From: Rhizaria sp. SCN 62-66
Taxonomy: Eukaryota
NCBI GenBank assembly: GCA_001724265.1
Contig: MEDY01000246.1
Location: 1 to 45,620 of the forward strand
Direction of reading: 5' to 3'
DNA: 45,620 bases
Shown here: in pieces, positions 41,523 through 44,875 of the stretch
Numbering within the stretch: position 1 is the stretch's first letter
Layout: every line of letters begins with the position of its first letter
Program-made: the position numbers and the translations under genes
Notes under the pieces: generated by a model
Seen by the model: only the letters and a program-made list of their open reading frames with translations
Database searches by the model: none
What the model was told of the DNA's origin: nothing

Positions 41523-44500
41523 TTATTCACTATCATTATCATCATTATTATTACTTGATTTTTTTTTCGACTTTTTTTTCGACGAAGGAAGCGTCTTGGC
41601 GAGGCCTGCGTTTTGAATGAGCTCATCCGTATGCGTGGTAATAAAATGTGCCAGGGCCTTACCTTGAGCGATGTCTTCAGGAGACGCACCCTCCTCCTTT
41701 GGATATGTGAGACTCAACAGTTGGGGCGACACGAAAGCAGGAATGACGTGAACTGTGTTAACCCGCGTACTATTGGGCTTAGGCAACGCCAGCTCCTCAA
41801 TCTGGCTCAGTGTCGATTTCTTCCTGGCCTGCAGCGTGTCCAGCTCAGTCTCCTTCAGACGAATAGCCTCTTCTAGCTTCTTGTCCTTCCCCTTCTCCAG
41901 CTTCTGCTTCTGCTTCTGCTTCTCCAGCTCATCCAGCGTCTGCATCACGTCCAACTCAAGCGACGCTAGCGCATCCAGCTCTTCATCTTTCAGCTTCGTC
42001 ACCTCCGCCAACAGTTGGCGATTCTGCTGACTAAGCCTCTTATGCGCCTGCAGCTGCATCTTCAGCCTCTTGAGCCTTTCCACCAGCTCCAGCACCTCCA
42101 GCACCCTCGTTACCACGGTCTTGAACTTCTCAACCATCTTAAACGCGCGCGCAGGGCGATAATCATGGGTCTCGCCAGCTGTGAGTTGAAGCGGCGAGAT
42201 GACGATCTTACCAAGGAGTCCGTCGGGTAACATCAGCGCGTAGGCGTCCCAATCGGGGTGCTGATGGGACCGGGGATCGAAGCGCCACACCCGATCTGAG
42301 TCGTTCTTAACTTCAATTTTCCCCGTGCGGAATCGAATAATAGTCTCCGCAACCAGGTAATATGGCGGAGTATTTAGCTCGGCCCTCTGACCGATGGATT
42401 GGCTTTCGGGCACACGAGTGGCATCGCTCTCGACTTTGCGCTTGATAGGGAAGATAGTCAGGTGCTCATGTCCAGTTCCAGACTGGGAGCGAATCACACT
42501 CCTCAAGTCGAGTGTAAGACCAATGTCGAAGCCCTTCGAGTCACAAATTGCGTACTGATGCGTGTGCCGCATGTAAAGAAAGAGAAATTCAAACGCAAAT
42601 CCGTGGGCGCCTGGCGGACATCGCTGGAACATATTAAAAAGCCTGGCTGGGGAGCTAATTGCAATGGCCCGCTGCAAGAGCAACTTGCAAGCCTCAGGGT
42701 GTGCCCACTTGAGCTCAAACTCCATGTGAAAGTACTTGGCTGCGGCTAAACTCTTTTCCCATGCCTTAAGCAGAGACGTTGCGTCCTCTTTAGTTTGCGT
42801 CTTCTTGCACTCCTGGATCACCGCCGGAAGATCAATCGGGTCGTCGAGGATGACTTGGTCAGGTTCGAGTGTAGTCTCAGGCAGAGACGCTGTAGTCACA
42901 CCAGTCTGCGTCTCATCGCACTCCTAGAATACCTCTGGAATAGCAGGCTCCTTGACTGTGAGTGTCGTTGGTGCGATTTGCGTAACAATGGAATGGGAAA
43001 GCTGAAATGCGCCTACTGTACCATCAGTGCAAAAAAAGTTCGCAACCGTCTCAATAGAAGTGGCATCAGCCAACTTATCAAAATGGTTCACTTCAACTTT
43101 ATCAACAATCCGAGATAAAACCCTTGTCACGGAGGCGTAATTGACATGCCCTTGTTCAGAGACAGCGTGTAAGGCAAACCGGAAGTTGCCGAAAACCGCT
43201 TCGGAGGCCATCTTAACCACATCCGACACAGGTTTGCCCAAAATCTTGAGTCCAGCAATAATCTCCTCGTGAGTCCAGGCATAGGACCACAACGGAATGG
43301 TGGTGAGTGATTTGGGAATGCTATCGGCGGATTTCATAATACACTCATAATGCTTGACGTGAGGAGATGTTGCAATCACATTGACGCCCCGACTGTTGTC
43401 GTTGTAAACGGGCTGAGCGTTCGCTTCGTTAGGATCGAAGAGGTACACCGTGTTCGGCTCGTCCATACAGTGACGCACCCCATCGCGTGTCAGCATGCTG
43501 ACAGTTTTCTTGGTCTTTTTCTTTTTCTTGTCGTCATGGTACAGGTGGATGTCACCGTCGCCCATGTGACAGATTACATTCACCCCGAGCTCGAAAAGCG
43601 CGACGTACCAGATGAGGTTAAGCATCACACTCTTGCCAGTGCCAGGGGGGCCACGCACAAGGAATGTCTTGCCCTTATCATTGCGACTCACCTTCGTCGC
43701 GCAGATGTGGGTCAGTATAAGTTTGTACAGCTGAGTGTGTGACACGCGCAACATCAAAATACGAACGTTATCATGATCACATTTGCCCCCGAAGGGAAAC
43801 TTTGCAAGATTACCGTGGATGGATGTGATATCGGGAGCGGCGAGGGTATGGAATAGTCCAGATGCATCCGTACCCCACTTCATCTATGTCAGATTCTCAG
43901 CGAACACATCAAGATTGGCTTGAGATTTACGCAAGGATCGAAGAGCAGACTTCTCTGTTTGTCGAACAGTCTTCATAGGTTGCTGAGTATTCTTCATTTG
44001 TTTTGCAACAGCCTCTGCAATCTTACCAACAAGCATTTCTTCATTGGGCGGATGGCTAGTCACACGCGAATCCAGTCGCGTGTAAGCATTCTTGAGCTCC
44101 GCCTTTGCAACGTTGAGCTTTGCGTCAGCATCGTTGAGCTTCGATTGAAGAGAAAACCAGTCATCGTATCCAATCATATAGAGAGCCTTCGTCGCCGTTA
44201 GTACGTCATCGGCCACCTTCCGTTCCTCAGGAGTGTTCGGCTTAGCTGTTTTAATTAATGAAAGTACCTTGGCCAAGGAGAGGTGATACTGAGCCGTGGT
44301 GACACCAGCCTGAGCCACTTTTAAAGAAACTTCGGCCACTTCCAGCCTCGCTTGAGCCACATCGCATTCAGCCCGAGTAACAGCCTTGGCCTCGGGAGAC
44401 GACAGAGGGTCGATGTCGCGCAAGGAGGCGGTGCAATTCTGCCACATAAGATCGACGTTCATGAGCGACGCCTTAGCCCTGGTCTACTTTTGCCCAGCAT

Positions 44501-44875
44501 CAGCCAGAAGCGAAGTCATCTTCTCAACAGCATTACCATGATTGGAAGCAATTGCAACAGCAAATTCAGCATCACGAACGGTGTCAGGAGAAAAAGCGGC
44601 AACCGCAACCGCAGCACGCAGAGAAGATGAGTCGAGCTCGCTCAACGTTGCTCGGAGGTCATCCTAAAGAGGACGTCGTATACAACGGAGAGCAACGAAG
44701 AAATAGAGAACGCAGGAGGGAGGAGGTACGTGAGCGTGATAATCAAATTCACCACATTGACGGGGGCGCATGCCAGAAGGCTTACAACAAAGGCAACCGG
44801 GCCGTGGTTACGTACCATTGCGGCGTGCCGATTTGGCTGTTCCTTCCCGGTGTTGATATCATCATTCCATGACAT
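41523..44875 (-). CDS. Crinkler/RHS-type effector: N-terminal helical repeats, P-loop NTPase, restriction-endonuclease-like domain, coiled coil; exons 44875-44816 and 44663-41523; three in-frame TAGs (44486-44484, 43886-43884, 42926-42924)
   Basis: The three listed ORFs (43884-44462, 42924-43883, 41523-42899) are one frame broken only by TAG. Motifs: VRGPPGTGKS (Walker A), VYLFD (Walker B), IATSP, AWTHEEI, GFAFE, PDWDAY...LQLTAGETH. A 152-nt GTACGT...TTTAG intron lies at 44815-44664. Ends TAA. The start is provisional because an acceptor-like site sits at 44885. Confidence 0.75.

Follow-up and report, generated by a model that had tools for sequence, protein, structure and literature searches.

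In-frame TAG codons in a multi-copy ATPase gene family of the wastewater eukaryote Rhizaria sp. SCN 62-66 suggest that UAG may be read as a sense codon

Structure of the TAG-interrupted gene

The analysed window, the contig MEDY01000246.1 of Rhizaria sp. SCN 62-66 (assembly GCA_001724265.1; 45,620 nucleotides, nt), carries near one end a reverse-strand gene whose long reading frame is interrupted by TAG and by no other stop codon. A preliminary description, made from the DNA letters, had proposed that this organism translates UAG into an amino acid and keeps UAA and UGA for termination. Retranslation confirmed the observation on which that proposal was built, as positions 44663..41523 (-) form a single frame of 1,047 codons with three internal stops, all of them TAG, and no TAA, TGA or frameshift inside. 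The locus is a two-exon nuclear gene belonging to a small, fast-evolving, multi-copy family that encodes a coiled-coil and AAA+/STAND-like ATPase protein. Exon 1 (44816..44875, -) consists of the ATG and 19 codons (MSWNDDINTGKEQPNRHAAM) and ends at a GTACGT donor; this segment, including the ATG, is kept in two metagenomic copies of the family, L004 and L002. It is followed by a GT..AG intron of 152 nt (44664..44815, -; GTACGTA...CCTCTTTAG) and by exon 2 (41523..44663, -), which provides 1,046 sense positions and the terminator. The TAG at 44664-44666, directly upstream of exon 2, is the splice acceptor and not a codon, while the terminator region (41514..41525, -) begins with TAA at 41523-41525 and continues in frame with TGA, TAG and TGA. 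A neighbouring host intron, with its donor at 33365, likewise begins with GTACGT. Relative to L004 and L002 the intron differs by indels of 3, 4 and 18-25 nt, which are not restricted to multiples of three, and the indels in the 5' flank of the family gene are likewise of arbitrary length.

The first in-frame TAG (TAG1; 44484..44486, -) is codon 60 of exon 2, and both L002 and L004 (approximately 80% nt identity) have TAG in the same column. The second (TAG2; 43884..43886, -) is codon 260, a position at which the relatives carry TTG, GCG, AAG, AAG, GAG and CAG, and the third (TAG3; 42924..42926, -) is codon 580, within a variable linker. These TAGs are real DNA and not assembly errors, since TAG1 and TAG2 recur in an independent metagenome contig (L001), which is identical to the window over codons 1-495, and in identical Logan contigs from other sequencing runs. 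TAG2 is covered by contigs of runs X1 and X2 (43824-44319, 0 differences) and TAG1 by a contig of run X5 (44394-44544, 0 differences), while no piece among the listed matches of Logan contigs laid on the window covers TAG3. Assembly errors, which the preliminary description had named as a refuting condition, were not borne out for the two covered codons. The database protein P0006, a paralog of 93.1% identity, corresponds exactly to residues 261-579, that is, to the interval between TAG2 and TAG3.

Stop codons in the family copies

A metagenome scan returned ten loci (L001-L010), L001 being the window locus itself. With 99.9% nt identity, L002 and L003 represent alleles of a single copy, and L006 and L007 are identical, leaving a non-redundant set of seven copies (the window gene, L002/L003, L004, L005, L006, L008 and L009), which are 32-66% identical to the window protein. 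L010 was excluded from the copy counts; it contains genes of bacterial type (an MFS transporter, a YjgF-like protein and an amidohydrolase), has family sequence nowhere but at 23-355, and is probably a chimeric assembly. Within 12 tblastn high-scoring segment pairs in the ten loci, one of which covers query residues 91-857 against distant copies, the in-frame stops amount to 16 TAG, one TGA and no TAA, a tally that still includes the single TAG of L010. Two undetermined residues, in L002 ('KLX') and L006 ('EVX'), stem from codons containing N and were excluded as not being TAG.

When the frames are delimited, TAG occurs three times in the window gene, three times in L002, five times in L004, six times in L005, three times in L006, once in L008 and twice in L009, with no TAA or TGA in any of them. 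Reading through TAG yields frames of 600-1,094 codons without TAA or TGA. The 23 TAG codons of the seven copies fall in 18 alignment columns, four of which are common to more than one copy (the window gene, L002 and L004; L005 and L009; L005 and L008; L005 and L006), and L005 and L008 have a TAG column in common at a protein identity of only 48%. Six of the seven copies are free of TAA, TGA and frameshifts. The exception, L002/L003, has in its 3' part (L003:1500-2237) lost 20 nt and 2 nt at separate places, gained 1 nt and undergone a TGG>TGA change relative to the window gene, and is a truly decaying family member that serves as a contrast case. Like the window gene, the family genes L005, L006 and L008 terminate with TAA.

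The copies also resemble one another beyond the gene. Flanks at 81-85% identity link L005 3435-4096 with L007 3036-3759, a shared downstream stretch of approximately 700 nt, and L006 1-257 with L007 7053-7307. This suggests duplicated units larger than the gene, which may lie in tandem about 7 kb apart.

Selection on the reading frame

A family of young pseudogenes in a transposon-rich region could produce a comparable picture if the restriction to TAG reflected chance and a mutational bias towards TAG in a family with many AAG, GAG and CAG codons, with the shared TAGs spread by duplication or gene conversion. TAG is in fact the commonest nonsense outcome expected from the codon content, but its share would be only 0.44-0.58. 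The six intact copies hold 20 TAGs and yet no TAA, TGA or frameshift, and a share of about 0.55 raised to the power of some 15 independent events gives a probability of the order of 1e-4 or less. Neutral simulations, fed for each pair with its own number and spectrum of substitutions, predicted 3.0-4.1 new TAGs per pair, against 0-8 observed, and 3.3-4.6 TAA and TGA codons, against none observed (P = 0.007-0.04 per pair). The codons from which the TAGs derive are diverse (CAG, GAG, AAG, TGG, TCG, TTG and others), which speaks against a single mutational process, and some of the TAG positions are common to diverged copies.

Indels point in the same direction. All 25 coding indels in three pairs are divisible by three (10/10 between the window gene and L002, 5/5 between the window gene and L004, and 10/10 between L005 and L006), while those of the intron are not. 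Local pairwise nucleotide alignments do contain gaps that are not multiples of three (17 and 37 nt between L002 and L004, 7 and 10 nt between L005 and L006, 1 and 11 nt between L006 and L009); in L005-L006, the only pair that was globally realigned, every gap then became a multiple of three. Together these results show that selection removes TAA, TGA and frameshifts from the family frame but does not act on TAG, which accrues at about the neutral rate and persists at common positions in copies that have diverged. The family thus tolerates TAG and not the other stops. Decay of pseudogenes at random is an unlikely explanation. It draws on several observations nonetheless: substitution patterns close to neutrality (detailed below), retroelement remnants and repeats adjoining the gene, the frameshifts and TGA of L002/L003, database relatives that are largely fragments and ordinary neighbouring genes that are free of TAG. 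Taken with the frame data, we regard it as quite improbable for the family as a whole. The claim that TAG does not act as a stop in the family gene is strongly supported by the TAG-only stops, the sharing of some TAG positions and the selected frame.

The residue at UAG and conditional bypass

Likelihoods calibrated within the family rank Gln (-66.4) and Arg (-66.7) ahead of Lys (-70.4), followed by Leu (-85.4), Tyr (-97.4) and Trp (-101.6). Gln fits best and is the leading candidate for the residue at UAG; further polar or charged residues follow it closely, and Leu, Trp and Tyr fit poorly.

This ranking bears on a second alternative, in which the standard code is kept and the UAGs of the family are bypassed conditionally or in a gene-specific way, either by adenosine-to-inosine (A-to-I) editing of the mRNA from UAG to UGG or by efficient near-cognate readthrough, so that the frame stays selected. 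The overall pattern is the one found in fungi, where premature stops that are exclusively TAG occur in a subset of genes and are conserved between copies while ordinary genes are free of them, and in two of the 18 columns TAG faces TGG. Editing to UGG would nevertheless insert Trp, the worst-fitting residue of those ranked (-101.6 against -66.4 for Gln), and hairpin loops are predicted at the A of 10 of the 23 in-frame TAGs compared with 30 of 60 off-frame TAGs, which is no enrichment, albeit in a weak test. Restorative UAG editing of this type is, to our knowledge, confined to ascomycetes, whereas the present organism encodes radial spoke protein 3. As for readthrough, the base following the in-frame TAGs is A in eight, C in six, G in five and T in four cases, a distribution without stop-context bias, and with up to six TAGs per gene an inefficient readthrough would give almost no full-length product. 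The codons of the neighbouring genes, taken up in a later section, bear on this alternative as well.

The encoded protein and its relatives

The predicted protein is framed by coiled coils at its N- and C-termini, between which lie an AAA+/STAND-like P-loop ATPase and, after it, a middle domain that is poorly modelled. The Walker A motif GPPGTGKS (43629..43652, -) is invariant in the family alignment, and the NTPase motif that the preliminary description had called intact is indeed present within an AAA+/STAND-like fold. In the AF2 model the first approximately 270 residues mostly have block values of the predicted local distance difference test (pLDDT) of 74-93, while the C-terminal domain is of low confidence. 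The best Foldseek matches are to the replication factor RFC (7tib_B, E 6.5e-4), ORC-Cdc6 (7tji_I) and CED-4 (4m9s_A, E 1.6e-3), with probabilities of 0.99-1.00. The protein resembles AAA+/STAND P-loop ATPases such as RFC, ORC/Cdc6 and CED-4 in its Walker A motif and overall fold; it differs from them in that it stays below the Pfam cut-off, the best profile, nSTAND_NTPase5, scoring 18.2 bits against a cut-off of 34. Foldseek returned no match for a C-terminal nuclease, a domain in which model confidence is low. Crinkler (CRN) effectors carry a CRN header domain at the N-terminus, and behind it an NTPase together with a restriction-endonuclease-like domain. The idea that the family belongs to these effectors was dropped, as there is no CRN-domain Pfam match, the N-terminus is a coiled coil and no nuclease was matched.

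Relatives are few. At E<=1e-30 only 15 were found among 1.84 billion representatives, mostly fragments, and in public protein collections the family is broken into fragments by gene callers that apply the standard code. Searches of prokaryote genomes and of 2.9 million viral contigs returned no relatives of the family.

Terminators and TAG codons in neighbouring genes

The window open reading frames (ORFs) taken as terminal, a small sample with predicted ends, finish with TGA in seven cases, TAA in five and TAG in none. The preliminary description had likewise reported no TAG terminator, which holds, though its count of five TGA and six TAA differs from the present one. The set includes ORF 8680-10392, possibly an internal exon of a MORN gene: this ORF and ORF 5542-8421 (-) lie in the same frame and both contain MORN repeats, so that 5542-10392 (-) probably forms a single MORN-RING gene, with AT-rich introns splitting it around 8422-8680. 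The lone window ORF that does end in TAG (32966) is an internal exon frame, and the TAGs that bound host ORFs upstream all lie within AT-rich introns or intergenic DNA.

One further TAG may be in frame in a GC-rich neighbouring gene. At 33169..33171 (-), 11 codons after the intron 33203-33365 (GTACGT...CACAG), this candidate is placed by the donor and acceptor phase of the intron in frame with a downstream 247-codon ORF (GC content at third codon positions, GC3, 0.82). The preliminary description had already pointed to this codon as an in-frame TAG in an unrelated gene; its existence was confirmed, and it is a candidate in-frame codon under the predicted splice sites. When the sequence was searched for further in-frame TAGs flanked on either side by coding-like GC3, 35 sites came up, all of which were antisense or wrong frames of known ORFs. 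Beside the family gene of L005, the forward-strand frame L005:3507-5012 (502 codons, GC of approximately 0.7), coiled-coil-like in sequence and without a Pfam match, is a candidate gene only. TAG interrupts it at four places, TAA and TGA at none (e.g. 'EQEAQL[TAG]EKDARLQEQEARHQTQMQ[TAG]QEARL'). TAG-bearing frames are concentrated at family loci.

That 10,459 codons of neighbouring host ORFs are free of TAG agrees better with the conditional bypass of UAG outlined above than with an old change of the code. Neither editing nor readthrough, on the other hand, predicts that TAG should be missing as a terminator from the ORFs taken as terminal. Together with the poor fit of Trp and the lack of a readthrough context, this leads us to consider such bypass unlikely, although it is the foremost competing explanation.

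Genomic setting

The window is a eukaryotic contig, among whose genes are those for radial spoke protein 3, MORN-repeat proteins, a protein kinase and a fatty-acid desaturase. In the ESM Atlas the radial spoke protein 3 matched only generic eukaryote clusters. Its sequence is present in metagenomes from wastewater, bioreactors and sludge (10 studies), sequencing runs with a small share of the sampled words being taken as no evidence of habitat. Window ORFs are mostly of 0.63-0.73 GC and the introns are AT-rich, while the final 7 kb, which contain the family gene, have a GC content of approximately 0.50. The family gene therefore sits in a low-GC, transposon-rich patch of the genome of a GC-rich, flagellum-bearing wastewater eukaryote. 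Degenerate remnants of long terminal repeat (LTR) retroelements, recognised in translations, adjoin it at 40101..41113 (-). Within these, 40101-40343 (-), judged by eye, is presumably the C-terminus of a copia-type polymerase ('KHIDIKECAVRDEV...'), and 40709-41113 (-), on the same footing, presumably represents a CCHC gag knuckle ('CFMCSKEGHRVSSFPE'). A high-copy repeat occupies 45195..45620, with a summed contig depth of 2,602 in run X1 against approximately 35 for single-copy sequence, and of 369 against approximately 5 in run X2; it probably explains why the contig ends there. A second repeat, at 39280-39734, has a summed depth of 296 in run X1, against the same single-copy depth. Several variant Logan contigs per position lie over the family gene, which, together with the high-copy repeat at the window end, indicates a multi-copy family in a repeat-rich patch.

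Such surroundings, with the family at approximately 50% GC among ORFs mostly of 63-73% GC, might also befit a foreign or selfish element that brings its own means of decoding UAG (e.g. a suppressor tRNA) or has been acquired repeatedly from a donor in which UAG is a sense codon, in which case the TAGs would be uninformative on the host code. The shared flanks of the copies (L005 with L007; L006 1-257 with L007 7053-7307) give them the look of repeated units, and the clustering of TAG-bearing frames at family loci would be expected. Against this origin stand the lack of relatives in the viral contigs and prokaryote genomes searched, the lack of a tRNA in the window or loci and the spliceosomal intron with its host-type donor. 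Copies with common GC-rich flanks have, moreover, diverged by approximately 15% with the frame kept, which indicates that the frame is maintained inside this genome. A foreign or selfish element accordingly appears very improbable as the explanation.

Weighing the evidence for a sense UAG

The explanation that we consider best, and somewhat more probable than not, is that this organism reads UAG as sense and terminates at UAA and UGA. The tolerance of UAG in the family would then reflect an organism-wide stop-to-sense change, brought about by a suppressor tRNA, by an eRF1 that has lost its recognition of UAG, or by both. Support for a change across the whole organism is indirect. The organism-wide decoding put forward in the preliminary description gains from the lack of TAG terminators and from the one candidate in-frame TAG outside the family, and loses from the neighbouring codons and the tRNA searches described next.

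Several observations weigh against a sense UAG. Thirteen neighbouring GC-rich ORFs, comprising 10,459 codons, contain no TAG, where approximately 98 would be expected from base composition if it were an unconstrained sense codon, although the zero arises by construction because these ORFs were defined from stop to stop; no neighbouring ORF continues across a TAG within an exon. The lack of TAG among 12 window and three family-locus terminators is only moderately improbable by chance (approximately 0.03, assuming that one quarter of genes normally end in TAG). No homologs were found for the gene with the candidate TAG at 33169-33171 when window positions 32428-33204 were searched with TAG read as X, and scans of the 45.6 kb window and of the ten loci yielded neither a tRNA nor an Rfam match, a result that is uninformative for approximately 80 kb of sequence. 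The sequence analysed contains no eRF1 gene. Close copies show a ratio of nonsynonymous to synonymous substitution rates (dN/dS) of 0.68-1.09, and of 0.58-0.89 when the ATPase domain is taken by itself, indicating weak protein-level constraint; substitutions are spread evenly over the codon positions (125:113:121 between the window gene and L002), and one copy, L002/L003, is plainly decaying. As to the residue, Gln (-66.4) is hardly separated from Arg (-66.7) by likelihood, and the TAG columns face Q, E, K, W, S, R, M, H and L, mostly residues one mutation away from TAG. Among the RNA pieces listed, none covers the TAGs and none gives a useful splice joint, the poly(A) RNA run X9 providing only pieces that are approximately 95% alike. 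Finally, in the rhizarian exLh and the fornicate Iotanema (PMC5304391), conserved genes hold several UAGs each, unlike the ordinary genes here.

If UAG is indeed a sense codon, its avoidance by the constrained GC-rich genes would mean that the change is recent or that decoding is poor. A more specific form of the explanation, which we put forward tentatively as a minority possibility, is that the genome is at an early stage of UAG reassignment or has restricted UAG decoding, the codon having disappeared as a terminator and from constrained genes and now re-entering through a weakly constrained, fast-evolving family. Intermediate states of this kind are predicted by the codon-capture and ambiguous-intermediate models. 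In the literature searched there is no described case of an early-stage nuclear UAG-only reassignment, and no report of a UAG-only code in wastewater eukaryotes. Were the sense reading of UAG true, it would add a further independent UAG-only reassignment and a data point on the uncoupling of UAG from UAA. The distribution of TAG, common in one fast-evolving family, absent from approximately 10,000 ordinary codons and never a terminator, would offer a way to study the first re-entry of a freed stop codon.

Comparison with known systems

Restorative A-to-I editing of premature UAG codons has been described in filamentous ascomycetes (PMC11156358, PMC10776026, PMC4817773), and fungal editing is reported to favour U at position -1 and hairpin loops, and hence to target UAG (PMC11156358, PMC10776026). 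The present family resembles these systems in that its premature stops are exclusively TAG and confined to a subset of genes, the downstream frame is kept and ordinary genes are unaffected. It differs in that fungal editing converts UAG to a Trp codon in hairpin loops, whereas here Trp is the worst fit, loops are not enriched and TAG terminators are lacking.

UAG-only nuclear reassignments are rare, being represented in the literature consulted by exLh, Iotanema and several ciliates. In the phyllopharyngean ciliates UAG encodes Leu or Gln, with suppressor tRNAs (PMC11687900), and in the ciliate PL0344 UAA and UAG code for different residues (PMC10553269). These ciliates and the present organism have in common independent UAG-specific stop-to-sense changes, established in the former and proposed in the latter, in microbial eukaryotes known from metagenome data. 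The ciliates, in contrast, show widespread UAG use and have identified tRNAs, whereas here the exons are of approximately 65-72% GC, spliceosomal introns are present and the window and loci contain no tRNA.

In Iotanema spirale (Fornicata) UAG encodes Gln, with 204 UAGs in 126 genes (PMC5304391). The likeness lies in a change restricted to UAG, with UAA and UGA staying stops, and in Gln being the best-fitting residue here also; the difference lies in the restricted use of UAG in the present organism, where Gln is only a candidate. The nuclear code of the rhizarian exLh, in which UAG encodes Leu and UAA and UGA are stops, is documented in the same source by 384 UAGs, which are spread over 71 conserved genes and mostly occupy positions of conserved Leu (Panek et al. 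2017, PMC5304391). As in exLh, the in-frame stops of the family described here are all UAG and the terminators are only UAA and UGA. Unlike in exLh, TAG is lacking from the 10,459 neighbouring codons, is found in one fast-evolving family and sits at positions where Leu fits poorly. The pattern of the family works like the published UAG-only nuclear codes and would represent a new independent case that differs from them in codon distribution, and the confinement of TAG to a fast-evolving family could mark an early stage of such a reassignment.

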